A stretch of 63,739 nucleotides of DNA, the filler included, from Folioceros fuciformis (Eukaryota), in the NCBI GenBank assembly GCA_049999805.1. It is 7 parts of 6 records of this genome, joined end to end, with 100 filler letters (N's around TTAATTAATTAA, not from the genome) between each part and the next. Parts side by side here need not be neighbours in the genome. Positions count along the whole stretch, not along the records: positions 25,418 to 42,740 come from JBNGIO010006088.1; 6 more parts are not named here. One strand, 5' to 3'. The position numbers and the translations under genes are program-made. How positions within the stretch are numbered: position 1 is the stretch's first letter; each line of letters opens with the position of its first letter. Under the pieces are notes generated by a model. It was not told the origin of the DNA, searched no databases, and worked only from the letters and a program-made list of their open reading frames with translations. Of this stretch, positions 10,874 to 40,904 are shown one piece after another.

Positions 10874-11711
10874 CCCTGCACAGCAGATCCGAGGAGAGGG
10901 GACAGGGACACACAAACTCCCTCCCCCTCCACAACCACTAAGGTCACTCCTGCCTGGTGCATAGGCTTCAATTGACGCCCAATTCGGTACCTCGAGTCAA
11001 CGCTCCTCCCCACTCCAGTACGATTTTGCCTGTGCCCAATTCACACAATCGCTTCGTCCCGTATTCACCCCCAAGAAATTCATGTTCCACCGAACTTCCC
11101 CTCCTTCGATCCTCCTGGGATGGTGACACACGACAATTGCTCACTCAAAAAGCTCCCTCCTTGACCACCAACTCCTCCTGAAAAATGCACTATCACTAAG
11201 TTCTACGTCAGACCGGTCTGCACCTGAACCCACAAGGCCCGGAGTCCCAGAAATTCTGGACAAGCCACTTCTGTGAGGTTGATAGAAACTGGAATCCCCA
11301 AGGCCATGAGCAACCGCAGCTTGTCGCCATGAGACGGGGAATTTGAAAACCATGTTGCAGCTACCCTCGGTTGGGAATGATCGAATCACGCGGGAACGTC
11401 CAGTTCGAGGATTGAACTCAACACATTTGAATCCCGATTAAGAAAGCCCGTCTACTGACCAAGTAGAGAGACACACGTATGAAGATAAAGAATAGGTTCT
11501 TCTACTGTATCCTTACCTGCACCTGTTTTACCCCTGGGCTGCTGCTGGACGTGAAAGGCTGTGACTGCGTTCTGCCGACGAGCCGACAGTGTCAATCCAC
11601 GCAGACGGAGGAAATTCTCGTGATGTGCCGCGAATTCTGATCAGCTGAAGGGAGCCGTAGGTTTCGGATTCTGCGGGAGGAGGGTACGCAGCTAGGAACT
11701 CGCAGTGAAAC

Positions 11712-14380: not shown

Positions 14381-15741
14381 CTACTGGCTACCCATTGGAA
14401 ACCTCTTCAGTGCGTCCACCTTGCCATCAACATAGCGCTCCACGATCGCCACCATTCGCTCATACTTGTCCGGATGGTAATTGACATGGATGCTAACTGG
14501 CCTCCAGTTGTACTGGAAAGGCTTCTCCCTGAATTCTTTAAAGAGAACCTTGCTGTTAAGGAACAGCCAGAAATCGAGAACCCTCTTAGAAGCATGCAGC
14601 CCCTCGTAACCGGGATGAGATGGGAAGAAGAGCTCTTCGTTGAAGACTGCCTGATCCCAGGCGTTCTCCCTGGAGAGCCTGGAAGTCACTCTATCAAGCA
14701 GCTCAATGGAGGGTCGAGTTGCCCGGATGTAGAACAGTCCAGAGTTGAACACCCAAATGCGCATGGTGTGCGCATATCTGGACCAGCCCATGCTCGGGTC
14801 GTCAGACACATCGTCGAACCCGTAAGCTGTGTTGTTGTCGAAACCGTCAGTCATGCCTTCCACATCACAGTCTCTCGTTAGGTGAGGCCATGGATTCTGC
14901 AAGAACAAGATGTCGACATCGGACAGGAAGACATTGTAACCCAGCACCAGAAAGTCCCGCAGCAGATGGAACTTGAGTCCAGACACTGCATGGTTGTGGC
15001 CAGCATTCTGTTGTGCCCCGGATATGGTAGCATCCCGCCTGTAGTAAGGAACCTGGTGGTCATCCGCAAATTTCGCCATATCATCGTCCAGAGCCACCAC
15101 AAGCAAGTTAGTCACACCTACTCTCTGGAGACTCTCGAACCACAGCTTCACCATACGTTTCACGTGGCTGTCACATATGCCCACGACCAACTCGTTGTTC
15201 ACTGCAACCTCCTTCAAGATCTTGGCCAGTTCCGGGTTCACAGACTCATCAGGCTCCACCAGAGGCTGCGTCCGGAGACCCTTGACCTTCCCCGGCGGCC
15301 CTGCCTTCCCGGTAGGCAGGGCTGTGTTCAGCTGCTCCAGCACGACTTCCCTCTCCTTCTGCACAACTCCCAGTTGCCTCTTCAGGTCCAAAACCATCTG
15401 CTGCGCTTGGAAGCGCTCCTCCTCCAATTTGCGAACCTCCGTCTCCAGTTTGACCAACTTCCGTCGAATGATGGGATTCTGCAACCACAAACAGACGTCT
15501 CTAATGCTCCGATCGACCCAAAGGGCTCAAGATAGTCATAATCGGATGACAGCTGCACGCACACAGCTAGGTCTACCTGCGCATCGCTGTCGTTGTTTAG
15601 CTTCACGCGGGAGCTGAAGGAAACCGGATCCGCAGGGTAGAGCAAGGCTACAATCAAGCCCAAGCCCAGGCCCACTCCAACTGCATACAACACCGCCCAC
15701 CTTTTCCCCTTGGCGGGGAGGGCCTCCTTCCTACCCTTCAT
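14381..15741 (-). CDS. RRA: RRA-type extensin arabinosyltransferase (GT77), type II membrane protein, 2 exons
   Basis: N-terminal TM segment (VLYAVGVGLGLGLIVALLYP), one intron at about 15480-15576, a coiled coil, then the DxD motif FLSDVDILFLQNPW and DGFDNNTAYGFDDVSDDPSMGWSRYAHTMRIWVFNSG typical of RRA1-3. Confidence 0.92.
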
Positions 15742-21890: not shown

Positions 21891-24800
21891 ATGGCAGCGA
21901 TGGTTGCGGAGGCGGCAGCGGCAGCAGCGGCTGCGTCCACACCATCGCCGTGCCTGAGGAGCGCCTCTGCCAGTCCCGCCGCCGTGCTGCGCTCCTCCTT
22001 CCTCCCGCAGCTGCCGCCCCGGGGTCTTCGACCTGGTGCCAGACCCTGCGCCGATCCTTGGAAGCGATCCAGAGCTGTAGCGGCTGCGGGGGGGGCGGTG
22101 GAGGTCCTGGTGCGGGGAGCTGCGCAGATCGGGGCCGTGGGATGGGGCACCTCGTTGATTGTTCCAGCCGTGCTATGGTACGCCACAGCCAGGCCCGGGA
22201 GCGTGTCCGGGGTGCTGGATTTCGTCTACCAGCCGATTTATTCCCGAAATCTCGTAGTTTTCTCGGCGGAGGAGGTGCCATAAGTTTCCTTGTCCCTGTC
22301 TTGGATGAGACAATGCCGTAGGAAGAGTGTGGATGAATGCTTCGATTTGGCCGGCTTGAGATTTTACTTTCTTTTGTGCGAGATTGTGCAGCGGTTGTGG
22401 TTTTGGACTAGCTGATGGATGTGTTGTCGGTTTCTCAGGTGGAGCTGGGACGGCAGCTAGGGGAGGGGTCGTTCGGTGTGGTGTACGAAGGGTATGTCGG
22501 GAAGAACGAAAGGAACGGCAATGGGGAGAAGGATAGGCTTCATGTCGTCTTGAAGAAAGTGAAGGCCAAGGTGGAGGGAGCCTGTGAGGTGCACGATGCG
22601 GAAATGCACATGAACGAACGGGTGAAGCGGACCGCTCCTAACGCGTGTGCGGAGTACCTTGGGGCTATGCATGTGAGTGCGGATCAGGTGAAAGGACGCT
22701 TGACGGAGGGGTTGTGGCTGGTGTGGCGGTATCAGGGGGATCGGACCTTGCAGCATTACATGAGGCAGCGGAACTTTCCTGAGAACGTAGCAGAGGCAAT
22801 TCTCGGGGCGGGGGCCGTGGAGGGAAAGCGGGTTTCGAGGAAAGAGGTTGTGGAGTTTGAGTCGGCCATCGTGAGGAAAGTGATGTGCCAGATTTTGACA
22901 AGTCTGCACGAGCTTCACTCGTCGGGTGTGGTGCACAGGGATGTGAAGCCTTTGAACCTGGTGCTAGATCAGGAGAAAGGAGCATTTACACTGATAGATC
23001 TGGGTGCCTGCGTTGATCTGAGGTCGGGCTATAACTATCATCCGAAGGAGTCGATTATAGATCCGGTCTATGCCGCACCCGAACAGTATGTGATGCCAAC
23101 GTCTACTCCTCATCTCCCTCCTGATCCTCTCTGTTCCTTGATTTCCCCAGTTTTGTGGCTTCTCAATACCCCAGACAGATTCGATCTATATTCCACCGGC
23201 CTTGTTTTCCTACAGCTCTGCTTGAAGCCTCTCCGTAGTGACGTGGGACTGCAGGCCTTCAACATGGAGTTGAAGCGTGCGGATTATGACCTGGACGTTT
23301 GGCGAGAACAGGCTAGGATTCACAAAGATGAGTTCGCAATTCTGGATGCGGATAATGGTGCCGGCTGGGAGCTGGCGAAGGCCTTACTGCAGGAAACACG
23401 TTTCGAGGACGAGCTGGTTTGGCCCAGTCTTGGCGAAGATAGTAGGCCCTCTGCGTCGGGGGCGCTGAAGCACCGTTTCCTCAAACGCCATACGACTGCG
23501 ACCCGATTTTCTTTACCTAAAGCCCCCGCTGATGTGTTACCGCATTGGGAGTCTATCTTGCCACATCCAGGCGAAGCGAAGCGGCCAGAGCGAGGAGCCC
23601 CAGTTCATGCCGCCAAGGGGATTTCAGCGTCTGGGAAAACGGATGCCGGTCAAGTTCATTCGCGCGGGGCTGGGGTTAGCAACCAACGAGCTTCGGATGA
23701 TCACTGGGGTGCTGTATTTGCTGCAGCTGGGCTGGGCAAGAATGTGCCTGTCACTGTGGCTCGTGCCGAAGCTGAAGAGCATGCGGGAGGCAGCGCTAGC
23801 AGCAGTCAAGGTACGCACCTGATTTCAGGCGCGGTCTGGTCATGGTCTCCGGCTTCACAACGAAGGCCGTCAGAAGATGAGGATCTTGCAGCTGAGGCGT
23901 CTCGCAGTGGCACTGCTCAAGCGCCATCCTCAATTGCGAAGGATAGCAAGACTAAAGAGCATGTGGAAGGAATTGCGAGCAGTCATGGTCGTCAGAAAGA
24001 TGTGTTTGCAGGGTTGTTCTGGCCGTGGAATAGGATTTCACAAGAAAGCGTTTTGGCATCTCAAGATGGTGCTCCGAGTTCGGCATCGGGTGTTTCTGAC
24101 AGCAGCAGCGCCCACGTGCCTGCTCCAGGTCCTGCATGGCCGAGCGTAGGGGCACCAACAATTGCAGGTCCAGCTGTCGATATCGAGGATAGGAGTCAGA
24201 CAGTTCCGGCAGTGTATTCCCCTGTCGAAGACATGGACAAAGGTGCCGATGAGAAGGAGGCTGCACCTCCTGCCCCTGGCCAATTTGGTCCTGCAGGGCG
24301 GTCTGTTTTTGTTCCCGTAACCTCTGTTGCTGCAGGAGCAGCCGGTGTGGTTGCAGGCTGGTTGATGTTGGGAGCTTTCAAGACATCATCTGAATTCACG
24401 TTCGATATCGGTGGCCTTACTGATGCTGTGGGCATAAGCGGCTCCGCGTTTGTTGCATTTTTCTTTATAGTGAAGCCCCGGCTTGAGGATATGATGAAAG
24501 CAGAAAGAAAGGCGAAGTTGCGCAAGCAGAGAGCCGTTGCGACCGCAGGAGTGGTAGCAGAGTCGACAGCTATTCGGGAGATCATGGCAAGGAGTAGGCG
24601 AAACACAGGATCGCATAGCGCAGGACTGGTTGAAGCTATGCAGGCTCTGGATCAGCAGATGGCATCGTTGGAGGAGTCTATAGTTGCTGAACGACAGTAC
24701 GCTCTGGAGCAAATCCAAGTACTTTCCAAGGTGAAGAGTCTTTTGAATGGACGACCTCAGACCTTGTCCAGCCCCACAGAAAGCTTTCCGGACGAAGAGC

Positions 24801-24904
24801 GCCTTAGCAAGCCGTTCACAGACTTTCCGGACGGCGAGTCGCTTACCAAGCCATTCACAGAATACGTGGAATCGGCCGGAGTTACGGGCTACGTAGACCC
24901 ATAA
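21891..24904 (+). CDS. STN7/STN8 (STT7)-family thylakoid Ser/Thr kinase with long C-terminal extension, 2 exons
   Basis: Ala/Ser-rich transit-peptide-like N-terminus and a TM segment, intron at about 22276-22438, then kinase motifs GEGSFGVVY, VHRDVKPLN, IDLGACVDLRSGYNY, YAAPEQYVMP and SPVLWLLNTPDRFDLYS diagnostic of the STN family. Confidence 0.85.
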
Positions 24905-25417: not shown

Positions 25418-28400
25418 AACGTGCCCTAAAACTCAAGTTTACTGGCGTGTGTGTAAAAACGACTACGCGTCAATACTCCCCCTCGACAGTGACTTGGTTC
25501 TAGGTTACGGGCTTAGATGGCGTCCATGCAGCATGCGATTCTCCGCCTTTTCTTAAGTGTGTTATCAAGCATCTGGTGGTTGCTTCAATCGTGAGCCACC
25601 TGATTTCAGCTGTGAGTGACGATATTGAAAAGCTGGAGAAGACCGACATTCGTAGGCGTAGACGGGATTCAGAGAAATCCAAGCTGGAGAGGCGTTCTGG
25701 AACATCGCGTGCAACTTGGAAGGAAGTCAATATGGAGGAATTTATGCTAGCTATCTCAACACCCTTGCCTGATTTAGAAGCAACGTGGAGTCGAGGTTTG
25801 CGGGAATTTTGTTGTTGTAGAAGCCATAGCTGCAGGTTGTTGCTGAACTCCCCCTGTTGCTGCGCCGGGCTGTGAGCTATGAAGACTGATGTAGGCTTCT
25901 CTACTTATAAGGCCGATGCCCTGCACATGTCTTTCATGCAAGTGCTTCGGTAACCCCTTGGTCATAAGGTCTGCAGTGTTGTCGTTTGTGCTCACATACT
26001 TCAGTGCCACTTGCTTACCAGCTACGATCTGTCTAATAAAGTGATGTTGTATCTCAACGTGTTTAGTCCGTGCATGCAGCACAGGATTCAGAGTCATTGC
26101 AATCGCGGACTGATTATCGCATTGAAGCACTGTAGGCTGATGCTGCTCCTCCCCGATATCTTTTAAGAATTGTCTGACCCACAGAATCTCCTTGGCTGCA
26201 AGTGAGGTGACTGCATATTCTGCCTCGGTGGAAGAGAGGCATAAGGTGGGCATCTTCTTACACGCCCATGAAACACATCCTCCGTTCAGCATCATGCAGT
26301 AAGCGGCTGTGGATCGACGAGCATCTGGGTCTCTGGCCCAGTCTGCATCGGAGAAGGAGGTAAGTGTGAGCTTCCGTTCAGGATCACTTCTATAAAACAG
26401 GCCAAGTGTTTGGGTTCCTTTCAGGTATCTCAGGATGCGTTTAACATGCGTCCAGTGTGCCGTCCTAGGGTTTGAAAGGTATCTGGACGCAATATTGATA
26501 GCCTGAGCCACATCTGGTCGAGTCCAGATGGCCTGATACAGGATACTTCCTACGGCCTCACTGTAAGGTACGTTGACCATCTCCCTTTGCTCCTCAGGTG
26601 TAGTTGGGCAATTTTCTGCTGATATTTTATCACCTAATGCTATGGGGGTTGCAACAGGCTTTGCATCCTTGAGATTGAAGCGTTCCAAGAGCTGCTCGAC
26701 GTAATGTGATTGATGTATGAAGAACGTGTGATTCTTTGAGTCACGCTCAAACTGCACGCCTAGGGCGTACTTCAGCTGTCATAGATCAGAGACTTCATAC
26801 TCCTTAGATAAAAGGTCTTTGATCTTCTGTATGTAAGTTGAATCGTTTCCGAAGATGAAGTTGTCATCGACATAGAGTGTCATAATTGCGAACGTCTCCC
26901 CCTCTCTCAAGAGGTAAACACTAGGATCAGCAGATAGTGGAGTGAATCCGCATTTCTTCAAATACCGATCTATGGTCTCATTCCAGACCTGAGCCGACTG
27001 CTTGAGGCCATACAGAGACTTCAAAAGTCGGTAGACCTTCTTGCTGTCCTTCACGAACCCTGGTGGCTGCAACATATAAATTTCCTCGTTCAGGGTCCCG
27101 TACAAAAAAGCTGTTTTTATGTCAACTTGATGAATGTCGAGGTGGTAATGTGCTGCGAAAGCCAAAAGAAGTCGGATGGAAGTCGACTTGACGACCGGAC
27201 TGTAAAGACGGTTCTCCTCATAATCGAAGCCGGGAGTCTGTGTGAATCCTCTGGCGACGAGCCGTCCTTTGTATCTGGATACAGTTCCGTCTGGATTAAG
27301 CTTCCTCCGAAAGGTCCACTTACAAGATATGGGCTTTCTGCCCGGGGGCAAATCTGTCAATTCCCAAGTCTTATTAGCAATGAGGGAGTTATACTCATCC
27401 TGTGCAGCGGCTGTCCATTCTGAGGATTTAAAGGCTTCTTCAATTGTGAGTGGGACTCCCTGCATTTCAATAGCCGACAGTGCTTGGTTAAGAGCCATTT
27501 GAGCTTCCTGCTGGTGAGTATCAACGGGTGTGTCAGCTGTGGGAAGCTGCTTTTGAGTAAGGGTATCACCTGGAGTGTATGGAGGTTCCTTCCATTCATC
27601 ACGAGGAGGCCTATAGCGAGATGACCGTCTGGGAAGTTCCCGTTCAGGTTCGACAGCTAGTGGGGAAGGTTCAGGGATACCTGGGATGTCACGTACCTTT
27701 GGCTGCTGACTTGGAAGAAGGGTTTAAGTGGGCGGTGATGTCTGTACAGGTGCTTTAGAGTGAAGATCGGAGGTAGAAGATTGATGATGTACCTCTTGAG
27801 ATTGTGAGTCATCGGGATCATATTGGGCCCCCTCAAGATCAAGAGGGGAATCAGCAAAAGAGTACCCGTAAAGACTGGCGTTAGGCAGGGGGGAAGAAGT
27901 GTGGGTACTGGTGAGGTAATGGGTAAGTACACTGGTTTCGTTAAACTGGGCACTTCTTGAGTAAACGACCTGACGACTGTGAGGGTCAAATAACCGGTAT
28001 GCTTTGACGTGATTTGAATATCCTATGAATAGGAGCTTACGACCTTTGTCATCCCACTTGCTACGGTTATCATCTGCAATGTGAGCGAAAGCGGGACTCC
28101 CAAATATACGTAAGTGTGAAATTCTGGGGGAACGACCTGTCCATCTCTCATAAGGTGTAGTGTTTGGGAGATCTTTAGTTGGGAGTCGGTTCTTAAGATA
28201 AATGGCGGTGGAGGCTGCCTCTGCCCAGTAGCCCTTAGTCAGACCTGCAAGTTTGAGAAGAGACCTGGAAATTTTTAAAATGGAACGATTGAGCCGTTCT
28301 GCGAAAGGGTTTTGTGATGGGGTATAGGGGACAGTTATCTGCCTAAGGATGCCTTTAAGGTTGCAGAAAGACTGGAAGGCTTCGCTAGTGTACTCACCTG

Positions 28401-30981
28401 CATTGTCGGTGCGCAAGGTGCCGACTAAGAAACCGGTTTGGCGTTCTACGGTGGTGAGAAACTCTTGGAAGTAATCGAAGGCTTCACTCTTGTGTTTCAA
28501 AAAATAGATGTGAGTGTACCTACTCCACTCATCCATAAAAGTGAGGAAGTAAGAGTGTCCTCCGAAGGAGACTGTACTCATAGGACCGCAAATGTCAGAG
28601 TGGATGATTTCCAAAAGTCTTCTAGCCCTAGTAGGTTGAGGATCTGAGAAGGGAAGCTGATTCAGTTCAGTGTACTTACAAATTTCGCAGAAGAAATCTT
28701 GTGACACCTGGAGTTTAATTGGGTCTCTGTACATTGAGGAATTAGTAAGGGATTTTAGATACCTCGGGTTGATGTGACCGGCACGGCAGTGCCATAGCAG
28801 GGAGTTGGTTTTATTTTGTTCTGAAGAATTGTTTACCACAAGAGATGAGTGGGTTTGGATGTTGAGCAGATATAAATCATTGTAAGGTAGGCCATGAGCA
28901 AGGGCAATATGGTCAGGATCTTTGACATGGCTGATGGTACAGTGGTTACCGACAAATGTGATTACGAGGTCATGCTCGGTTGCTAACTTCCGAACTGACA
29001 GCAGGTTCTTTGTCATCGTCGGGACATGCAGAACTCCGTTGATGAGAAGGGTTTCTCCATTTGCAAGCCGTAGTTTGATATCTCCTAACCCTTGAATGGG
29101 TAATGCACTGTCGTCTCCAAGTAGGACGTGCTGGTCAGATGTCACTTGGTGATATGTGTCGAACATATCGATACTACTACAAATATGCGTCGTGGCTCTT
29201 GAATCAAGGAACCATCGGTGTAGATCTGTTCTGGTAAGTGTAAGGCATACTGCCAATATGGAGCATGCTGCGGGCAGCCTGTTGATGGTAGTGATATGTG
29301 ATTCATTCCTGGGATTGTCTCGACGAGGTTCGCCTGCCATCTTCTTACGGCACTCGTGTTCATAATGCCCGATAATTTTGCACCAGTTGCATGCTCCCTT
29401 CTGTAGTCTGTTTTGTTGTTGCCTCGGACCTGCATTAAAAGAGGGTCTCTGAGACTGACCAGCAGGTTTCCGTGAGGAGAAACTGCCAGGTCTGAAACCA
29501 CCCCGCCTTGCACCACGGCCTCGTGATGCAAACAGCACTTGATTGGCTCCAGTATTGGAACGTGAGGTGCCTATGCGGCTGGATTCTTCTTCGAGGAGGT
29601 CTGCAACAACTTCTGAAAGTGTGCAAGGTGCCGAAACTCCTGCTTGGGCTGCCTGTCGAAGTGCCGTGTTTTGAGAACTGACGAACGTTCTGTATGAGCC
29701 AGGCAATGAGGTTAGAAGAGTAACCGCTGCCTGCAATTCTGTGAGAGTAGTGCCGCTGGCGGCCAACTTGGCTCTTGCGGATCTGAACTTGTGTATGTGT
29801 TGCTCAACGCTGTCAGATTCTTTCATTCTCAATGAGTAGAATTGACGTGTTGCATTTACAAGTGACATTGAGCTTTGGGCTTGGAACATCTCGTTGAAGG
29901 TGTTCCAAATACCGTTAGAAGTTGCCTAGCCGTGTGTATGTTGTAGCATGTTCGTATCGATTGCTGAAATAAGGATGTTGCGGGCACGTTTGTCGCTTTT
30001 CTCCCATGCTGCAATCTGGTCATGAGTTGCAGGCGGAGTTGATGTTGTGGATGGCTTGGGACATGTGCCATCGACGATGCCCATAAGGTCGTGCTCCTCA
30101 AGCAAGGCTTGAATTCTGATTTGCCATATGTCGTAGTCGCTCCCTGTGAAGCGATCGCGGTCTTTGAATTCCACCTTTGTGGTGTTAAAGGTTAATGTTG
30201 GGTTGGCTGGAGTGCTGACAGGTTGATGATGCGTTGCCATTACGCGGCGGCGGTGCCTGGTGCTGCTGGCTTGTGTTGCTAGGGGATCGAAATCGAACAT
30301 ATGCTGCAAGGATCAACAGATTAGTGATCCAGGTAACCTACTTGCGCTTACAGAAATTGTACAGTTCTCGGTAGAGGGCTTCCAGTTGCGACTCTATGCA
30401 GTTCAGCTGAATCTTTAGATACTCAGGACTTGCGACGACTGCAGAAGGAAAGGGAAGATGCGTAGGGTATGTGGAGAATTGCGCTTGAAGGTGACTCGAA
30501 ACTGGTGGGCGTGGTGGTGCTAATGCAGGTCGCGACTGTGGAAGATGGGATGGTGTCCTGTGCGCGGCGGCTGAGCAATCGTTGCAAAATTTTGTGGCTT
30601 GTGGAGCAAGTCTGCCTTGTGGCGCGAAGCACGCTGGATGGCGGCGCCGAGGCATGCTGAAATCGGAATTTCAAGTCAGGGTGTTGCAGAGTACGCCGAC
30701 CTTCATGTTGCGAGAAAGCCGGGTGGAGGCGAAGCCAGGCGGCGGTGAGCCAACCGGCTCTGATACCATGTAGATACGGTAATAGTAATAATCTCATATT
30801 AGAAAGGGGTATTAAGTGCCCTTATATAGGCTTACATAAAGCGGTTCGTAACTGCTGCTATATAAGTGTTTTAATAAAACTACTTAAACTGCTTAAACTG
30901 TTTTCTTATATCAGCCCTAGCGAAACGTGCCCTAAAACTCAAATTTACTGGCGTGTGTGTAAAAACGACTGCGCGTCAATA
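25418..30981 (-). mobile_element. Ty1/Copia LTR retrotransposon 'Copia-A', near full length
   Basis: 5' LTR 30769-30981; tRNA-iMet PBS TGGTATCAGAGC at 30757-30768. Gag with CNWC..GH...C knuckle, protease WFLDSRATTHIC, integrase (HSDICGP, LRTDNAGEY), RT (LYVDD), RNase H (SDADWA). PPT at 25476-25484 and a 3' LTR remnant at 25418-25475 cut by the linker. Nonsense codons at 29926 and 26779 plus a frameshift near 27720. Confidence 0.95.
30338..30655 (-). CDS. Small upstream ORF of Copia-A between PBS and gag (105 aa, C-terminal leucine-zipper-like segment)
   Basis: ATG-initiated ORF MPRRRHPACFAP...EYLKIQLNCIESQLEALYRELYNF. Both ends are homologous to the same position in Copia-B. Confidence 0.55.
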   Translation of the reverse strand: MPRRRHPACFAPQGRLAPQATKFCNDCSAAAHRTPSHLPQSRPALAPPRPPVSSHLQAQFSTYPTHLPFPSAVVASPEYLKIQLNCIESQLEALYRELYNFCKRK

Positions 30982-31164
30982 CCATTTGACAGCTGCAATG
31001 AGACATTGCCGGTGCCTGCTACAGCCAGGGCGCTATCGTCTCCCAGGAGAACATGTTGGTCATCTGGTGAGTCGTGATCTAACTCAAAGGCTTCCTTGCT
31101 ACTGCAAATGTGCGTGGTTGCACTGGAGTCCAGGAACCATCTGTTTTCATCTGTTTTGGTGAGT
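30982..31164 (-). mobile_element. Copia-B protease segment, continuation of gag 39123-40143
   Basis: Reads LTKTDENRWFLDSSATTHICSS...VLLGDDSALAVAGTGNV. Joins in frame to ...VLAICLTL once the DNA transposon and one TGAGT are removed. Confidence 0.9.
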
Positions 31165-31478
31165 ATCATGGTCTAACCCAGACGAGCGGATTCCACAAAG
31201 CCCCTTTTGCGCATTTCACATTTGTCGTGATTCACGTTCCTTATCTACTTTTGATCTAATTTCACAAACAATAACACCACCGACATGTATCCAAATATTT
31301 TGGTTGCTGCAAAGGTCAATAAAACCAAATTTACTGAAAAAAATAGTTTGAGTCTTCTATATGAAACTTGATATTTCGCAACGCTAAACTTGTGGTGCGC
31401 CAGTCAATTGACGCACAAATTTTCCAAAGTACTTCAAGTTTACGTTTATACCAATTTCAAATTAAGTCAAGTTTATTC

Positions 31479-34271
31479 TCAAACAAAAAAAGGGTCGTCC
31501 TGGTTGGCTTTGGAGTCCACAACTACATATAAATCATTCATCCGTTGTGCATCTGTATTGCCAAAGTCATTAGCACCCACTCGAAACACCGAGAAGTTGG
31601 GGTCCTCTGTAGTTTGAGGCGGCAAAGTGCAATTCTTATCCCAGACAGTGATGGCGTAAAGGTCTTCCGCAGGCTTATCATCAATTTGGTATATGACCTC
31701 TCCTTTCTTGCTCAACATAGTGAACACCATTAGTTTGCGGTCCACGCTCCCATCACCGCACACTTCCTTCGCCCAAAACTTTGATGGGCCTCGCGTAAAC
31801 GACTCTATCGTAATCTCCTCATCTAGGTCAGGCAAAGACCCTAGCCCGATAATCCGCTACATAATATATGAAGTGTACCTGACATCCACATCGATCGCAA
31901 CCGCATGCCTTCCGTGCTGAACAGCACTTTGGAGAAGAGATCCCAGACAACAGCGTATAGGGTCGTCTGACAAGAAAGGCCTTCATTTCCAGTACATTCC
32001 TTTGAATAACCTGGTATTTTACCTTTGAGTTACTCACCGGAACCTGAAAATCCAACAGCCCTACGTCCATATCCGCTGCCGCCAACTTCTGCTTCTCCTC
32101 TTCCATCCTTTTCCAGTTTTTCTCCGAATAAATGAAATCCTGGAATGGCTTCGGTAGGGACTCCAAGTCTGCTATCTTTGAAGGTTTCTACAACCAGAAT
32201 GGTACATGTTAGTTTGGCTACCGATAAAGCTACTTCAGCATGAACAGACATGAGTGTGCCAGTAGATCGGCGCACTGGGGCCTGCTGGAGCTGCAGTGCG
32301 CCGGTCTACCAGTGCACTGCTTTCGGCTAGAGTCCAGTGCGCCGGTAGACCAGCGCACTCTTGCCGGAAGCTGCTCGTGTGCGCCGGTCTACCGGCGCAT
32401 TGGGGCTGGCTCGGGGCCAAGTGCGCCGGTAGACCGACGCACTCCTGCTTAAGGAACCGGATTAGTAACACGAGAAATGATCGCAAAAACTTACCACTTT
32501 GGCGAAGGCTATCTGGAATTTTAAGAGATGACCATCTTCTGTGTGCTTCGGGTAGATCTCTTTGGCCTCTTCAAAGGTGCCGCACTTCATTGCCATTTGC
32601 AATGCATGTTGTATCAGGTGGATCTTCTTCGTCTTCCCCACTTCAGTGTCCATGTCCCACAATTGAAGCTTTCCCTGGATGACCTTCTGCATCACCGCTA
32701 TCAACATCTCCTCTCCCTTCACACCTGTTGGGACGCCTTGGAAGGCTCTCCATGGCCTGCCCTACATCGCTCCTGGCCTCCTGCTGCTGTCTTCGGTAAC
32801 CTGGGTAACAGAACTTTGCAGGGTAGAATCTCCTGTCTTCCATTTTGCCTTTGCCCTCTTTGTTGTCTCGGCTGTTACCATGCTCTTCTTCCCACATTCT
32901 AACGATCATGTCCACATTGTCCCAAAGAACACCTGAGCATCTGGCTACTTGACATGGCAAGGTTTGCCTGTCCACCATCTTCTACACCCAGTTCTGTGTC
33001 GTGGGGATCTCCACCTTCGTCAGTCATCCCTAGCAACCTGTATAGGTTAAACTTCCACTTGACTGGTGGCTTCTCTTCCCCTAAATGATTCCTGAAAAAA
33101 ATGTCGAGCTAGTCATGGATGTATCGCACCTACTCAATGAACCCCATCCTCTTCCACTTGTCTGCATAGACATTGTGGTTGACAGCGAAAACCCTCATCT
33201 CTTCCTCTGTCAACCCAGCATACACGTGCCCTTGCATCCATTCATACTTATCTTCTGCGGGGAACATCTAATGGAGTTTCTGCATGGCTGCAAAGCAGTG
33301 GTTGCCCCCTAAGACTCCCATATGGTACTGTTGCGCTGTGATCCTGTCCAAGGAAACCTCTTCCTTGCTCACTACTTGCTTAGGATCAAGCATACACAGG
33401 AGGGGCAAGATCCCTTCCTTAACAGAGCCAGCCTGCATCTGCCTCACTAAGCTTTTCATCCAAGCTTCGTCTACCAGCCTTATCTGTGCGTCAGAGGTGA
33501 TGAAAGATGCAGGATACAAAATATCCACATGTAGATCAAACGTTGTGGACCTAATCCTCTTGGCATGGGCCTTCTTCCTTATTCCATTCAGGTAGTCCTC
33601 ATCCTGTGCTAACCTCTCAAACCTCTCTACTACCCAAGTTAGCTCTGGCTGCACCTGCTGCACTACGCCGCCCTTCCGTCTCTTCTGCTTCGCTGCCTGC
33701 CCTCTTGTTGTAGTGCCTGCTGCTTTTCACCGCTTCGGCTGCGGAGATGTGGCTATGGAGACATACAGGAGGTGTAACATCGGGGTCAGCGGTCAGTGTT
33801 TTAGCAGTAGAATCAAGGTAGCCAAAAACAAACCCACAGCAAAATGCTCAGCTTGCACACAACAGCCTCACCGGATGTCATCTTCCGCTGTTTCGCAAGA
33901 GATGCTGATGCTCTCCTCTTCCGCTGCCCTAGTGCGCTGGTAGACCGGCGCACCTGGGTCACCCTCTTCCGTGGTGGAGTGACCTCAACTGGGGACTCCT
34001 CAGATGCATCTCCCTCGCAGGAATTGCGGGGCATCTCTAGAGCATCATTCAGACTGTCTTCAGCTGAGGAGTACTGAGCCATCTCCTCGACTTCCTCCTC
34101 TTCACTGTTGTGTTGTGGAACGTATGGTGCCTCCTCTTCTGAAACCTCAGGCTGCATATGAGGCATCTCCTGCTTGTCTTTCACGAATCCCACTGCACGA
34201 GTGTTGAGGACTCCGAATTCTGCTTGCACCGGCTTCCGCTGCCGCTCCCCAAGCCGCGCCACAAGAGCCAT
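31479..34271 (-). pseudogene. Transposon cargo gene with a ParB/Srx-like N-terminal domain; spliced, decayed by stops and frameshifts
   Basis: Acidic/basic disordered N-terminus, then IRLVDEAWMKSLVRQMQAGSVKEGILPLLCML...YHMGVLGGNHCFAAMQKL...HVYAGLTEEEMRVFAVNHN, which follows the ParB-N pattern. An in-frame GT-AG intron at 32188-32494 joins FAKV to KPSKIADLESLPK. Confidence 0.65.
32253..32443. repeat. Array of five 24-bp palindromes AGTGCGCCGGT-NN-ACCGGCGCACT, period 41-42 bp
   Basis: Copies start at 32253, 32295, 32336, 32378 and 32420, separated by 17-18-bp non-identical spacers. Confidence 0.92.
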
Positions 34272-34393
34272 ATTCTTCAGCACCGCGTCTCCTACGCACC
34301 GCAAAACTGTTCGACAAAACTGTTCTCCACCCTAATTAGCGTAAAAAAAAAACACAAAAGTTAGGGTTTAGGATAATTCTCAGTAATGACATT

Positions 34394-35230
34394 TTAACCT
34401 TTTAAGCTGATAAGACCACTTACATCCTTCAATAAAAGACAACCTCTTAGCGCGTTTTTCATCCACAGTGGTTCGCATCGGCGAGGTATGGCTTTCGCAA
34501 CATTCACAACCACTAAACTATGACTATCGTAGTCATCCATAATGTGGCTTGGTGGGTGTTGGGTGAGGATGAAATTCAAGTGAGTTTCGTCGTCTTCACC
34601 GTCCACTGATGCACAAAGAATCCATCCTGCCCTTCGTGCTTCGTGCTCCGCCAAGCCTTGAAACCCATTCACCCACAGAGCAACAAGAGGAATCCACAGC
34701 AAGTTCAAGTCATCAGGCTCATCTTCAGCTATCAAAAACCATTCCTTATCAGTGTTGAATCTTTTGGCCAAAGTGTCTTCTAACTTCTTCAGTCTCAATC
34801 TCTCTACAAAGTTGTAGGCATTCGGAATGTTGTAATTCTGATTGCCTCCTGTATTGCCTCCGTGATTCACATGCAGCAGAATGTCATTCAGAGGTCCTTC
34901 ACTTGCTTTTGAATTGGATGCTCTCATGCTCCCACTTAAGTTATCCTTTCTTCCTCCGGCGGTCTGGGCAATGGGAGTAGTTTCTTTGCCAGCGGGTGGT
35001 GTAGGTCGATGTCCATCCCTATCGGTGTTGTGACCAGACGACGCTCGCGAAGTTGCTTTCCCCGGATTCCTTTGCTTTCGTACTCGTGGAAGCGCCTTAA
35101 CATCCCTGTCCACAAGCTGAAGTTTGTTGACGACCAGATGCCATTGGTACATGCACCGGATTTGTACAAGAAAGAATTCGAAAACGAACTGTTCAGCTGA
35201 AACCAAATATCCACTGTTGCCAACCGCCAA
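34394..35230 (-). CDS. Uncharacterised transposon-internal ORF (up to 278 aa)
   Basis: Open frame inside the element. The C-terminal ~140 aa look globular; no motif recognised and the start is uncertain. Confidence 0.4.
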   Translation of the reverse strand: MAVGNSGYLVSAEQFVFEFFLVQIRCMYQWHLVVNKLQLVDRDVKALPRVRKQRNPGKATSRASSGHNTDRDGHRPTPPAGKETTPIAQTAGGRKDNLSGSMRASNSKASEGPLNDILLHVNHGGNTGGNQNYNIPNAYNFVERLRLKKLEDTLAKRFNTDKEWFLIAEDEPDDLNLLWIPLVALWVNGFQGLAEHEARRAGWILCASVDGEDDETHLNFILTQHPPSHIMDDYDSHSLVVVNVAKAIPRRCEPLWMKNALRGCLLLKDVSGLISLKG

Positions 35231-35787
35231 TGCATTTATAGCGTGATGGAGGTCGTATCAGGCGGAGATTCTTGCTGAACAGTTAGTTCTATTTTTACTC
35301 AAACATTCAAATCTAATTAGCGTGATGATGGTCGTTTCAAGCGTCAATTCTCGCTGAACAGATATTTTTATTTCTGGTCTAAGGTTCACATTGCATTAAA
35401 CACTCGTGCTTCGGGACTTGGTGGAGGGGCATTGTTACAATGCTGCACATTTGAAAGCCAGCCAAGCCGAAGGGTATACACACACTGTTCTTTCATGCTT
35501 CCATGGCAAACAAACCTTCATCATCGTGTCATGGTATGGAGAATTTTTGTGAAGATAGAAGCGACGAAGGTTTGGAAGAACGAACGATGCTTTGTGATCG
35601 TGGATTCACATGACTATGATTTGCTTCTGTTTTACTAATCTGTGGATGATTCTTATCCCCAGGAGACCATCCTTCCATACATCAATTTGAGGAGTTGAGG
35701 TCGTCGCCAATCCGTCTAAGTCTTCTGGACAAAGTTCATAGTTCTCTAAGCCCGTCATCTCCGCGACATTCATTTGTAGGCGCAGTG

Positions 35788-38595
35788 ATGAAGACTACAC
35801 CTCTACGAGGAAACGCCGATGTCCATAGGTTCTATGGAGGGAGTGGCGCAGAAGGTTGGGGCGTAGGTAGTGGAACACATATGCAGGAAGTGAACGATTC
35901 CATGAATGTGAATGAAGAAGGGCATTGCAGTCAAGAGAGTTCGGACTCAAGACATACACCTAGCCAGCGGTCGACCTTTAATCAGAAGCCAGCGTCGGAG
36001 TCAGTGATCAAAACACCCTTAGATCATCGACGATGTTGGCGGAAGAGACCTTCAACAATACCAGAGGCTAAGTGTTTAGAGCTTCGCATTTCTGTTGGTT
36101 ATAGAAAGATATGCTATGCGAGACAATGTCTGAGACTGCTTGGTAAACCAGGATTTAGAGAGTTGCGATATCGTTTTCTAAAGATGAGTAGGACAGAAAA
36201 AGAAACCTTTTTGCAGGCACATTTTGATGTCGAGAAGACTGAGAGCACACGTCCAATCGCGGAACCATTCTTACTTGGGTTGGGGAAAATAAGGTGTTGT
36301 CGAGACGCTTTCAGAAGAGTGTACTGTATTGGTTCAAATAGATATGAGGGAGCGAAAGAACGTGCTTGTGGGAACATTGTGTGGTCCGAAGCTATCCGCT
36401 CAGAGCCACAGGCTCCAGGGTACGTCGCTGCCGCGTGCGTATGGATGGATCAATTGTTTCTCCTCATTGCAGAGCGTATGCCAAATGTTGAACTGTACCA
36501 TTTGCCCAACTCTTACATAGAGGAGGAAATTTTCATGGGCTACAAGCGGCAAATGAGCTGAGCAGAACAATACAACATTTCGTACTCTTACTTCCGTCAA
36601 CTATGAGCCTCGCACTTCCCAAAAGTGCGCATTCCAAAAACGAACAGATTTTCCTTGTGGAAATTAGTTCTTTGGGTTATGTTTTTCAATTCCATGATGT
36701 TTGTTGCACATGTTCCTAGTCTGGTGCTGTTTAAGGTGACATAGGGAGTGCGCCGGTCTACCGGCGCACTCTCGGCGGGTCAGGACTAGTGCGCCGGTGT
36801 ACTGGCGCACTCCCGCCGGGTGAGGACAAGTGCGCCGGTCTACCGGCACAATTTTCCAGATGCATGAGAAAAGTGCACCGGTACACCAACACACTTCTGC
36901 AGCCAAAAGTTAGTGAATGCTGACTTAAGTTCCCGTTCATGGAAGAGGGTTTCGAAAGCGACTTGAAAGTACATCAACAAAGACTGAAGGCACAGCGAGA
37001 GAAGAGTATCAAGCATCGTGTAAAATGCTATGGCGATCCGGCTAAATACCTGGGGTTGTCTATAGATGGAATGGATCAGCAAAAAACTCAGATTCCTCAT
37101 TTTGTGCGACTTCCAAAGGACTTGGCAGACGTTGACCTTATTCACGTCCATGTTGTAGGATACATGGTGTACAATAGCACAATGTCGCTTGAGCTCTTCA
37201 TAGAGTATGAAAATATATGGAACGACACGAACTTAACAATTTCTATTATCCATAATGTGATTCATGTGTACATTGGACTTCTTCCAGGAGTTATGTACTT
37301 GCAGTTGGACAACACAGCAAGAGAGAACAAAAACGCTTTGCTGTTTTCATATCTGAATATGTTAGTGGAGAAAGGAATCTTCAAGAAGGTGAAGGTGGGG
37401 TTTTTACTAGTGGGCCACACGCACAACCACGTGGACCAGATGTTCTCCTGGTTTTCGATAGCTCTGGGAAGGAAAGAAGCACTGATTTTACCTACACTCA
37501 TCGCTGTTATGTAGAGTTCTTATACACCTATGCCAGCAGTGCATGAAGTGAAGGAGGTTCCAGACTTCCGGCAATTTGTGTGGCTTATACCTTACGGAAA
37601 AGCCGGTTATCAGAATGTATCAGCTGTTCACCACTGCACAATATTTCGTTCCAACACCAGTTCAAGATCACAAGGGAGAGCCGAGGTGAATAGAGCTTTA
37701 TAACAGTGATGTGCGGGAAGCAGTATTGTACAGACGAATTTTGGTCACCAGATGAGGGTATCGAGTTTCTGAAGCATATTCCGGACACAGATATCAAAGC
37801 TGCTCCATTTTTACATCTACAATCTAGGAGCAAAAAACAAAGGACAGTTTCGGACAATGTCGTTGAATATCATCTAGCACAAATCATATCAAAACTGGAG
37901 ATGCGATTACAACAACACTTAGGACCAAGCGAGAGCTTGTGGTGGGATGGGTTTTGGGTAGAGCAAGAGGCTATCGTGCATTCTATAAACTCCGGTGTAG
38001 ACAGAGACCTTGATTCTCCTTGGCGGTAGTATAATCGGGAGGCGGCAGAAATATTGAACACACCCGTTACTGTACCAGACGAAATGGTTGTTCACAATCC
38101 ACGCATCCGTGAGATTCCTAGAAGAAACATGTATGTGGGGGCATACCGTAAGGAGACGGACCTCAATGATGACCGCGACAATTTGAACGGGGATATAACC
38201 GAAATAGAAAAAGGGCATATGATTGCAGTCCCTTGCAAGACTGACGAAGACAATAGGCTGTTTTGGATTGCCAAAGTCTTAGAGGCAGATATTACATGCG
38301 AAAACCATATGTCAAAGTGCACTAGTGGGTAACCAAATGTTCATATGCTTTTGAGGGTCGTTACCAAGAAGAGATGATTTTACCACATGAAGCTCCGCCA
38401 AGAGGGTTACGTGGCGGTCGCAGACACAGGTCAAGCAGAAGACTTAGGAAGCATATAGATACGTTATTCATTGAAGACACGTTTATTCTAGCATATGGAT
38501 TTGACTTAACGCGCCAAAAACAGCTTCCCTCCCAAACGAGGACTCTCAATCGTGAACAGGATACACTGCCGCCTGAAAATAATGAAAACTTGTAA
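35788..38595 (+). pseudogene. DDD-type transposase of the DUF7869/Sola-like group, disrupted
   Basis: Cys-containing N-region (CCRDAFRRVYCIG), HFPKVRIPKTNRFS, core motifs LSIDGMDQQK, YLQLDNTARENKN and FLLVGHTHNHVDQMFS (36939-37514), and a C-terminal KGHMIAV...LFWIAKVLE segment. Several premature stops. Confidence 0.8.
36747..36895. repeat. Second array of four 24-bp palindromes, period 41-43 bp
   Basis: Copies start at 36747 (perfect), 36788, 36829 and 36872. They lie in a non-coding interruption of the transposase gene. Confidence 0.9.
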
Positions 38596-39122
38596 GACTT
38601 TTAGATAAAAGTGTTAAGTACAAACAAGTATGATAATTATTGTATATAGCGCCGGTCAAGTTCCGTTTTCCACTTGACATACATGTGCCTTTAGCAGTGT
38701 GCGCTGGTCAACCAGCGCACTCTCGCTTGTTCCGTGCTGGGTCACTGGTGTTCTATTTCGCCACTGTTTCTGAAAAATGCATATAGATATCAACATGTGA
38801 TAATTTTGAGGAATAGGGTCACCTGATATGAGGTATCGCTCAAACACCTACGACTTTACATGGAATACGATGACAAGTGAATTACGTGATACCCGCCATA
38901 TTATGAGGTTTTGTCATGTATTTGATTGCAATGACACCTGCAAATTTGCTAGTACTTTGGAAACAATTGATGATTAAGTTTATACTCAACACTCTTTTAG
39001 GCCACATTTCAGGTTCTCCTGACAAAAACAAGGGAAAATGTGGATATCTGACACGAGTTTTCAGCGTCAAAATCTCGCGAAGCCCAAAATGGCGGAATAC
39101 ACCCTTCTGGGTTAGACACTAT

Positions 39123-40904
39123 TGAGTGTTAGGCATATTGCTAGAACAGAGGTTGGGGAAGTTGACTTTGTGCTTGTATAGTGTGACTCGTTACGAGGTG
39201 GGTCGCGACGAGGTTTGCCAGCGAGCTTCTTCTTACATTCATTCTTGTAGTGCCCAGGAATGCGGCACCAACTGCACGAGCCCTTGGTTCTGCGGTCGAA
39301 TTGTTTGTCACCACCGGAGGATGGGTGAGAGGAAGGTCTTCGCATTCCAAAATTGCCACGGCCGCGTCCTCTTTCCGTGAATAGCACGTGAGTGCTAGAT
39401 TGGGTTGTCTTGTGACTTGCAAATCTGCTGGATTCCTCCTCGAGGAGAGCCGCTACTACCTCGGTGAAGGTGTAGTTGGGTGTATGTCCTGCTGCAGTTG
39501 TTTGGATTGCAGCACGGATTGCTGAATTCTGTGCGCAGATGACTGTTCTGTATGCAGGTGGCAAGGAGGTTAAGAGGGCAACTACAGCCTGCAGTTCACA
39601 TATCACAGTACCTCTTGAGGCTAGCTTTGCTCTGAGGGACTTGAACACGTTCACGTGCTGCTCAACACTATCCGAATCTTTCATTATGAGGGAATAAAAT
39701 TGTCTCGTAGCGTTGATGAGGGACATGCTGCTTTGAGCTTGGAACATGTCTTTAAAAGTCTTCCTGATTGCATTGGAAGTGGCTTGACCATTCGTGTGTT
39801 GCAGCATGCTTTTGTCAATGGTATAGATGAGGATAATTCTAGCGCACTTGTCCTTTTTGGTCCAAGCTGCGATTTGGTCAGAAGTTGTAGGAGGAACAGA
39901 TGAGGTTGATGGTATGGTGATTGTACCGTCAACGATCCCCATGAGGTCGTGCTCCTCAAGGAGCATAGTGATGCGCATTTGCCATATGTCATAATTGCTC
40001 CCTGTGAAGCGGTCTCGGTCTCTAAACTCTAATTTGGTTGTATTGATGATGTTGGTGGTCATTGCTATACGCTTTGCAAGACGGGTGAGTTTCTTAGCAA
40101 TCAGGTTGGTTGTGTGCTCACCTAGTGGATCATAACGAGGCATTCTTCTCTTTAGAGTGCTTCGGATTCATTGTTTGTGTGTACTGGTAAATTGGAGATG
40201 GCAACGAGAAGTGCCTCCATCTGCGACTTATCAAAACTAGCTGACTTTTAAGGTAATCTTCGGAGGAGGTAGCAAGGTTGCAAGGTGCTGGAGAGATCGT
40301 GCTGCTGTAGCGTGCAAGAAGGCTGTTGCTCTGTGGATTCTTGAAACGCTTCTTGCTTCAGGAAGATAGTATGGTCGGATGATAGAGGTGTCTCTGCAGT
40401 AGTTGTAGGTTCGCGTCCATGGTGGCATCACTGGTGGTGTGCGATGAGGCTGTGTGAGTGCGATGAGGCTGTGTGAGGGCGATTCGGCTTGGGGCATTTA
40501 TGCTTGGAGCATAGCTCGCCGGGGTGCGACGCTGAGGCATGGTAGATGGCCTAGGATCGTCAAAGCTTGCCTCCGTTGCTCCGGGTGCGTGCCATTACGG
40601 GTGGCTGAGAAGAGCAAGGTGCAAGGCGCGTGCGCGAAGCCAAAGGGGGCAGGTCTCTTCAGCTCTGATACCATAAACTGGAAGCAAGATTTATGGAAAG
40701 GATAATTACATTGATGATCAAGGGCTTAGTTATACAATTGTTTTCTGCAGTTATAACTGCTCGCTCTGATAACCGTATCTAAGTTATAACTGCTGAGGTT
40801 AAGTATAGTAAGTTCAGTCTACCATGTTTAATTAATGCCAAGTATCCATTCATGTGAACCATGCCCTAATCAACCAGTGTAGTCGGCGCATGAGGATTTC
40901 AACA
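39123..40904 (-). mobile_element. Copia-B 5' part: LTR, PBS, upstream ORF remnant, gag
   Basis: PBS TGGTATCAGAGC at 40662-40673; putative LTR 40674-40904 (TGTTG...TTTA). Gag (40143-39123) is clearly related to Copia-A gag (DRDRFTGSNYDIWQ, CSWC..GH...C). Confidence 0.88.

Follow-up and report, generated by a model that had tools for sequence, protein, structure and literature searches.

A decayed land-plant transposon with a ParB-like accessory gene and phased palindromes as candidate binding sites

Introduction

We have studied a DNA transposon of the land plant Folioceros fuciformis, contained in a stretch of 63,739 nucleotides from genome assembly GCA_049999805.1 (here called the window, to which all coordinates refer). 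The element lies in the part of the window derived from record JBNGIO010006088.1. It carries a transposase gene on the plus strand, a divergent accessory gene on the minus strand whose product has a ParB-like core, and a set of closely related 24-bp palindromes. An earlier examination (the sequence-only reading) had proposed that the element encodes a DNA-loading protein together with its cognate sites. We have followed up this proposal by homology searches, structure prediction and comparison with Logan contigs.

Results

The transposon and its insertion site

The element extends from 31165 to 39122, a length of 7,958 bp, and is nested within a copia gag-pol gene. Its limits were set by alignment against paralogous copias and by a contig joint. 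The interrupted retrotransposon, Copia-B, is on the minus strand, with gag at 39115-40167 (PF14223) reading into the segment 30945-31172. Copia-A (29115-29263) is uninterrupted at the equivalent site, and Copia-B matches it as far as 31164 and again from 39125. An empty paralogous copia was also found among Logan contigs, with 31155 joined to 39125 via six letters in one contig each of runs X1 and X2. The empty site is present in two paralogous copias. The three runs used throughout (X1, X2 and X3) come from a single sample, possibly that of the assembly itself, in which case they are not independent of it. The borders and ends are as follows.

31165-39122, no strand: whole transposon copy, from the empty-site alignment to Copia-A and the contig joint 31155 to 39125
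31160-31164, no strand: left copy of the target-site duplication, TGAGT or possibly the 4 bp GAGT
39123-39127, no strand: right target-site duplication TGAGT
31171-31194, plus: left inverted repeat, 24 nt, 83% complementary to the right repeat
39094-39117, minus: right inverted repeat, pairing with 31171-31194

The length of the duplication can be assigned only as 3-5 bp, so that a 4-bp duplication is equally possible. The outermost 6 bases of the element pair only with an indel, and the inverted repeats are therefore fairly called subterminal. Thus the sharp borders, duplication, empty site and subterminal repeats of the sequence-only reading are all borne out. At position 31167, 11 contigs of X1 end their match and continue leftward into unlike sequence (agreement 0.48), which is what would be given by a left terminus common to copies at many loci.

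Copia-A itself (gag, integrase and reverse transcriptase, approximately 25.7-29.9 kb) is bracketed by a 59-bp direct repeat (25418-25476 and 30924-30982, 96.6% identity). It interrupts Copia-B immediately to the left of the transposon, and the insertions are therefore nested.

The transposase

35788-38595, plus: transposase pseudogene, with a DUF7869 core at 37116-37508, TGA and TAG stops, and frame changes

An open reading frame (ORF) at 36924-37514 matches PF25273 (DUF7869) with E = 3.1e-38. A database search gave 94 relatives, every one carrying PF25273; those with names come from ferns and a liverwort, with one each from Ceratopteris richardii and Adiantum nelumboides and 27 from Riccia sorocarpa. 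Full-length relatives of approximately 870-930 amino acids map to 35929-36666, 36942-37580, 37634-38284 and 38311-38559, with changes of frame. In-frame TGA and TAG codons occur where the relatives have residues, and the gene in this copy is consequently a pseudogene. Aspartate residues within the motifs IDGMD, LQLDN and HVDQMF (H.DQMF) are kept both in the window and in all five of the homologues displayed, from which we infer a catalytic DDD triad. The plus-strand DDD transposase proposed earlier can be named as a DUF7869 transposase with three conserved, putatively catalytic aspartates. A search of the ESM Atlas with the transposase returned only 'DUF7869', and there was no mention of this domain in the literature searched.

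The DDD pattern and the possible 4-bp duplication fit a Sola element, and the 3-5 bp of TGAGT are compatible with the duplication length of Sola1 in particular. Together with the parallel to an Ectocarpus element described below, this makes the transposon probably Sola1-type.

Between two homology blocks of the transposase lie 276 bp for which one homologue (P0046) has only 18 residues. This gap is probably an intron, and the second of two palindrome arrays (see below) lies inside it. Towards the C-terminus of the protein (38200-38290; homologues P0041-P0053) there is a conserved PFWIAKV ... VHWY block, which might form a small chromatin-binding barrel.

The two divergent genes are separated by 636 bp, within which lies a tandem repeat that is a candidate for a shared promoter element.

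35239-35396, no strand: two tandem direct copies of a 79-bp unit, 73% identical, from a repeat search

The accessory gene

31479-35152, minus: ParB-like/methylase-remnant accessory pseudogene, proposed exons 35152-34424, 34331-33872, 33752-32495 and 32187-31479
32188-32494, minus: putative intron 3, holding all of palindrome array 1; GTAAGT donor, AG acceptor, phase 0 on both sides
33139-33561, minus: N-terminal domain of ParB type (ParB/Srx fold), carrying the motif VLGGNHC and interrupted by three in-frame TAG codons; family hidden Markov model (HMM) E = 1.1e-36
32483-33020, minus: putative ParB-type DNA-binding and helical middle region, in three frames; family HMM E = 6.6e-8, 2.4e-8 and 1.9e-7
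31881-32187, minus: DNA-methylase remnant, comprising a pre-core segment and a motif-I-like stretch; catalytic core absent

The minus strand had been read as carrying two genes. Inspection by eye of the sequence alone indicates that these are joined by two in-phase GT-AG introns, and that the strand most likely carries one gene. An ORF of 287 amino acids (34394-35257) ends in GAT at a GTAAGT donor; a second ORF, preceded by a pyrimidine tract and an AG, continues from 34331 in phase 0. This second ORF ends in G at a GTGAGG donor, from which the AG at 33754-33753 leads back in frame to the ParB-like ORF. One contig from a run that we guess to be RNA spans 34256-34514 with the proposed intron 1 retained, and is uninformative. 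The resulting layout of N-terminal region, charged linker and ParB-like module parallels that of an intact fern homologue (P0135, introduced below). The 287-residue upstream ORF gave no usable match in the ESM Atlas, and an HMM of the N-terminal β-domain of fern homologues, run against the window, reached an i-E of only 1.2, which is not significant and leaves exon 1 without proven homology to this domain. As judged from their reading frames, the transposase and accessory genes alike are interrupted here by in-frame TAG or TGA stops and by frame changes; both are pseudogenes, and this copy of the element is dead.

The accessory protein has a ParB-like core

The ParB-like region was searched as the translation of 32902-33666, with X placed at the three TAG codons. 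This query found 39 relatives among 1.84 billion representatives. A wider search gave 92, falling into clusters of up to 40 sequences, none of the 92 having a precomputed Pfam domain. The best of these is Ceratopteris KP509_1Z236600 (P0135, 594 amino acids), which is intact. Besides the N-terminal domain, HMMs of the family locate in the window a DNA-binding region, split over two frames at 33020-32615 (E around 1e-8), and a helical part (32614-32483, E = 1.9e-7). Longer relatives of P0001 did not emerge from a word-indexed search, and a protein-pattern scan of metagenomes gave 131 pattern matches with no relative among them.

An AlphaFold (AF2) model of the window protein had a predicted local distance difference test score (pLDDT) of 84.3. 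When this was compared with known structures by Foldseek, the top 10 rows were all ParB, Noc or PadC, the best being ParB-CDP (6sdk, E = 5.9e-4). VIA aligned the model with CDP-bound Myxococcus xanthus ParB (7bnk_A) over 95 amino acids with Z = 10.4, a root-mean-square deviation (rmsd) of 2.2 Å and 20% identity, and 23 of 237 chains gave Z ≥ 8. The fern protein behaved similarly. Its model (pLDDT 82.8) matched the ParB N-domain at residues 203-335 with Z = 11.2, and residues 204-495 were collinear with 181-191 of the approximately 195 residues of the ParB N-domain plus DNA-binding domain, with an rmsd of 8-9 Å. These models indicate that the core of the minus-strand protein has the ParB N-terminal domain fold, and they suggest that a ParB-type DNA-binding domain is present as well in the intact fern homologue. 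The structural check suggested with the sequence-only reading thus returned a ParB-N match for the repaired ORF; of the ParB/Srx-like motif set claimed there, the fold has stood, while a counterpart in Pfam or PDB sequence searches did not emerge.

The N-terminal β-domain of P0135 (residues 15-129) shows a weak resemblance to the M18BP1 SANTA domain (Z = 6.5, rmsd 3.6, 93 amino acids) and to the DNMT1 RFTS domain (Z = 4.2). From these model comparisons it may be a chromatin-reader module.

A remnant of a DNA methylase

In two of the 39 relatives (P0003 and P0019) the ParB-like region is followed by a PF01555 methylase domain, and the motif DxPYGF was seen by eye in P0009, P0013 and P0011. An HMM of the long relatives matches the window at 32163-31951 over model positions 331-399 (E = 1.9e-5) and breaks off one residue short of motif IV (IADAPYGF). 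In another frame, at 31881-31943, there is a stretch ..LGSLLQSAVQHGRHAVAIDVD.. that by eye resembles the AdoMet-binding motif I (FxGxG, with an acidic strand after it) of the relatives, D.F.G.GST..SA...G..V.G.E.D. From these alignments the present copy appears to be methylase flanks without a core. Given the fusion of distant relatives to an N6/N4 DNA methylase, self-directed DNA modification is most likely the ancestral role of the protein. No Pfam match to a 2-oxoglutarate (2OG)-dependent oxygenase was found in the ORFs of the window or in the 39 relatives.

The palindromes

31394-31417, no strand: copy 12, degenerate, left subterminal, found by a half-site match at 31395 and then by eye; 6 arm mismatches
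32253-32443, no strand: array 1, five copies starting at 32253, 32295, 32336, 32378 and 32420, from a pattern scan
33931-33954, no strand: single copy in proposed exon 2 of the accessory gene, from a pattern scan
36747-36895, no strand: array 2, four copies starting at 36747, 36788, 36829 and 36872, from a pattern scan
38698-38721, no strand: single copy 3′ of the transposase stop, right subterminal, from a pattern scan

The palindrome AGTGCGCCGGTCTACCGGCGCACT is 24 bp long, with arms of 11 nt and a 2-nt centre, and is present in 12 copies. With up to 3 mismatches allowed there are 10 sites in the window, compared with 0.00 expected from 100 shuffles; with up to 6 mismatches there are 11 sites, every one within the element. 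The 10-nt half-site GTGCGCCGGT (≤1 mismatch) occurs 19 times within the element and not once in the other 55,781 bp of the window. The claim that the 12 palindromes occur nowhere else in the window is thus upheld.

The copies in the arrays are regularly phased, with start-to-start spacings of 42, 41, 42 and 42 bp in array 1 and 41, 41 and 43 bp in array 2, i.e., about four helical turns. Within array 1 the central dinucleotide alternates between AG and CT. The palindromes are considerably better conserved than the sequences between them, with a mean pairwise identity of 0.85 compared with 0.41 for the spacers. The arms of 11 copies comprise 242 positions, of which 21 depart from the consensus. 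As 18 of these 21 changes are transitions, the copies have decayed from one perfect consensus. Counted from the ends of the element, the outermost palindromes lie 229 bp inward on the left and 425 bp inward on the right.

Could the palindrome be a genome-wide repeat that is independent of the transposon? Such a repeat would have undermined the original proposal. The summed depth of X1 contigs is 223-352 over the arrays and 353-434 over their neighbours; depth over the arrays is not raised, and the palindrome is therefore a part of the family. In contigs from other copies of the family the palindromes are linked via unrelated spacers of 9-39 nt. A search of metagenomes with the palindrome pattern found five contigs that carry isolated single sites but lack related genes, which we take to be chance or unrelated matches, and Rfam gave 0 matches.

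Some contigs contain joints at the arrays, either jumping from array 1 to array 2 or skipping array 2 alone (32276 to 36745, 31215 to 36827 and 36722 to 36906). This suggests that deletion derivatives and changes in copy number have arisen there.

The element belongs to a multi-copy family

Runs X1, X2 and X3 gave 2,266, 2,120 and 1,648 contig pieces, respectively, at ≥80% identity, and these covered all 30 bins of the stretch examined. The element belongs to a multi-copy family. Because every bin is covered, the accessory gene and the arrays are parts of that family and not a private capture by this copy; other copies had been named earlier as a check, and many contigs cover the cargo region just as they do the rest of the element. 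Differences between contigs and element are mostly C>T and G>A. In X3 such changes (31000-39300) are found at 429 (C>T) and 464 (G>A) places, far above X1 and X2, with many positions changed only in that run. X3 may be a cytosine-conversion library or represent a different set of copies; in the former case it could report methylation over the element.

Discussion

A proposed self-recognising transposon

The reading that we prefer, with confidence that is about evenly balanced, is that the locus holds a dead copy of a multi-copy cut-and-paste transposon whose ParB-like accessory gene is accompanied by palindromes that are its likely cognate sites. In the family, the accessory gene divergent from the transposase would encode an N-terminal region, a ParB-like module composed of an N-domain and a helix-turn-helix-type DNA-binding domain, and ancestrally a β-class N6/N4 DNA methyltransferase. 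The ParB-like protein would bind the 24-bp palindromes, and in this way recognise its own element. Once bound it would modify the DNA of the element (by methylation where the enzyme is kept) and/or regulate its two genes, probably in order to counter silencing by the host. The arrays would lie in introns of both genes, with one palindrome near each end of the element, a layout like that of plasmid centromeres such as F sopC. The palindromes are the best candidate for the cognate site because a ParB-type module with a putative DNA-binding domain is found together with dyad-symmetric 11-nt arms and phasing by about four turns. The pairing of protein and site is plausible.

A number of observations weigh against this reading. 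At the level of sequence, the window protein matched no Pfam family at E ≤ 10, PF02195 (ParBc) was found in none of the 39 relatives, PDB sequence and profile searches returned no ParB, and an hhalign comparison of the family profile with F SopB reached a probability of 0.1%. The DNA-binding part of P0135 taken alone is a weak match, with Z = 5.7 for Spo0J-parS (4umk) and Z = 5.2 for the Noc DNA-binding domain (6y93). The methylase catalytic motif IV, (D/S)PP(Y/F), is missing from this copy, which has no methylase Pfam match, and the listed fern relatives (approximately 500-600 amino acids, no Pfam domain) seem to be without the enzyme, so that methylation would not be a universal role. The palindrome is moreover poor in adenine, and thus a poor substrate for an N6-adenine enzyme. 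Among named matches, Riccia provides 27 of the 94 transposase relatives compared with none of the 92 ParB-like ones; the search was heuristic and the evidence weak, but the cargo may not accompany the transposase everywhere. Lastly, what is observed is the anatomy of the element, the folds, its place in the family and the presence of many copies; that the protein binds the palindromes, and to what end, is inferred.

The nucleotide-binding motifs are also not those of ParB. Binding and hydrolysis of CTP by ParB involve the motifs GERRxR and ENLQR. The consensus of the present family is VLGG.HS..A and ..HN, in which the G, G/H and N are near-invariant and there is no arginine pair. GG[N/S/G/T]H (GGxH) and HN therefore stand in place of GERR and EN, the equivalence being judged from where the motifs lie, at the junction of strand and helix. 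The CTP motifs are not kept, and the CTP-dependent clamp invoked by the sequence-only reading is for this reason weakened and no longer the default. We have set it aside as an explanation, without excluding it.

A fuller form of the proposal would be ParB/parS-like self-recognition in a land plant, in which a dimer with a nucleotide pocket of non-canonical GGxH type loads at the palindromes, spreads along the element, deposits N6-methyladenine or N4-methylcytosine (6mA/4mC) and so blunts silencing by cytosine methylation. We consider this unlikely as a whole. The deposition of 6mA/4mC, which would mark the element as 'self', could apply only to those members of the family that keep the enzyme.

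Alternatives for the palindromes

It is to a similar degree doubtful that the arrays act as nucleic-acid structure, as intronic hairpins or cruciforms with a role in small RNA production, splicing or expression, or as hot spots for recombination. Folded as a single strand, array 1 has a free energy of -72.6 kcal/mol (z = -7.9), which none of 200 shuffles equalled, and both arrays are in putative introns. The joint between array 1 and array 2 found in one contig each of X1 and X2, where 4,468 bp are skipped, resembles a deletion derivative. However, a structural role leaves unexplained why an exact 11-nt arm has been kept in at least four separate places while the spacers are free to change, and it does not account for the phasing by about four helical turns. 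A structural role and the binding of protein are not mutually exclusive.

Alternatively, the palindromes could be subterminal and internal enhancer sites at which the transposase binds to achieve synapsis, with the ParB-like protein acting elsewhere or non-specifically. Many DNA transposons use repeated subterminal motifs, and the degenerate copy near the left end and the single copy near the right end are placed in keeping with this. Yet 9 of the 12 copies are 1.1-2.4 kb inside the element, in the two arrays within putative introns, and the terminal 24-nt inverted repeats have no sequence in common with the palindrome. We give this alternative a small chance.

That the arrays are functionless minisatellites, and the ParB-like gene a captured or horizontally acquired passenger without a role for the element, would suit a copy that is pseudogene throughout, but is very unlikely given the contig coverage of the cargo (like that of the rest of the element), the multi-member clusters of relatives (up to 40 sequences) in other plants, the in-phase introns, and the dispersal of the palindromes over five places rather than in a single expanding array.

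Other features of the window

Outside the transposon, an uninterrupted ORF of 1,686 amino acids on the minus strand (5936-10996) matches no Pfam family at E ≤ 1e-5 and is unusually long for so repeat-rich a stretch. There are two apparent host genes, one on the minus strand at 14384-15526 (Nucleotid_trans glycosyltransferase, E = 1.6e-40) and one on the plus strand at 22412-24901 (protein kinase domain, E = 3.7e-18).

Comparison with known systems

The architecture of N-domain followed by DNA-binding domain appears to be common to bacterial ParB and the protein described here. The bacterial ParB-parS systems differ in having GERR and EN motifs and a ParA partner; here the motifs are GGxH and HN, and the similarity does not extend to the level of sequence. 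A Pfam search of 14 ORFs of the element matched only DUF7869 and gave no ParA, for which reason a partition system has been rejected as an interpretation; partition is not in any case the expected role for a transposon in a eukaryotic nucleus. The layout resembles in particular that of the F plasmid, where sopC (locus L006) consists of 10.7 units of 43 bp with a palindrome in each and directly follows sopB. Here too phased repeated palindromes, at 41-43 bp and in sets of five and four, lie in or beside the gene of the presumed binder.

ParB-type modules fused to or linked with DNA methylases, as in this family, have been described in phages and plasmids, and chlorophytes and chytrids have adenine methylases fused to a ParB-helix-turn-helix module (Iyer et al., 2016, PMC4738411). 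As that paper describes it, the eukaryotic family is Dam-type (group 2), whereas relatives of the present protein match PF01555. Prokaryotic or viral ParB-methylase proteins are the probable source of the cargo. The leading region of the F plasmid provides a prokaryotic example of ParB plus methylase, since a DNA methylase and a large ParB/RepB/Spo0J-family protein are annotated there a few kb apart (L006, 14167-14850 and 19539-20001).

A functional analogy, and no more than that, can be drawn with VANC of the Arabidopsis VANDAL elements, a transposon protein that is reported to recognise short motifs in its own element and to alter its epigenetic state. The protein is unrelated, the carrier is of Mutator type, and methylation is lost rather than a mark added.

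Two further systems are algal. In red algae (Bostrychia), Plavaka accessory gene 3 (PAG3) encodes a ParB-like N-terminal domain with a 2OG oxygenase, arrays of tandem inverted repeats adjoin the gene, and its authors propose self-binding and self-modification, the cargo moving between transposon superfamilies (Petroll et al., 2025, bioRxiv 10.1101/2025.02.11.637652 / Curr Biol). The combination of a ParB-like accessory gene and adjacent tandem inverted repeats is the same as that found here. PAG3 differs in its fusion to a 2OG-dependent oxygenase where the present family has methylase remnants, in its carriers (EnSpm/Plavaka, Zisupton or Fanzor, compared with a DUF7869 transposase), and in the evidence for ParB, which was an HHpred E of 0.29 compared with a fold match of Z 10-11 here.

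In the brown alga Ectocarpus, the element Sola1-1_Ec32 carries a gene with ParB-like and N4/N6 methylase domains opposite the transposase, has a 4-bp target-site duplication, and finds its best blastp match in a moss Sola1; the authors suggest that the element's own sequence is bound and modified (Dinatale et al., 2025, PMC12477816). It has in common with the present element that the ParB-methylase gene lies on the other strand from the transposase. It is larger (21.5 kb), with 282-bp terminal inverted repeats and AACCG termini, while the present element is from a land plant and lacks the methylase core. The passages seen of that paper mention no binding-site arrays, unlike the element described here.

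The sequence-only reading knew of no such combination of gene and sites in a plant transposon. For land plants this agrees with our full-text literature searches, which found no transposon with ParB cargo, although subscription papers and supplements may hold more. As a statement of novelty it was overstated, because the Ectocarpus Sola1 and red-algal PAG3 cases were published in 2025. Descriptions of the arrangement have until now come only from algae, and the present element is a land-plant member of a recently recognised kind rather than a new kind of system.

Transposon proteins that recognise and modify their own element are rare, and ParB-based examples first came to notice in 2025, in algae and on weak sequence evidence. 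To this the present locus adds an example from a land plant, a firmer assignment of the ParB fold, and an explicit 24-bp candidate site with 11-nt arms and 41-43 bp phasing. With both fold and candidate site explicit, the hypothesis of a protein and its site is directly testable. If the pairing is true, the logic of bacterial centromere binding has been reused by selfish DNA in a eukaryote.

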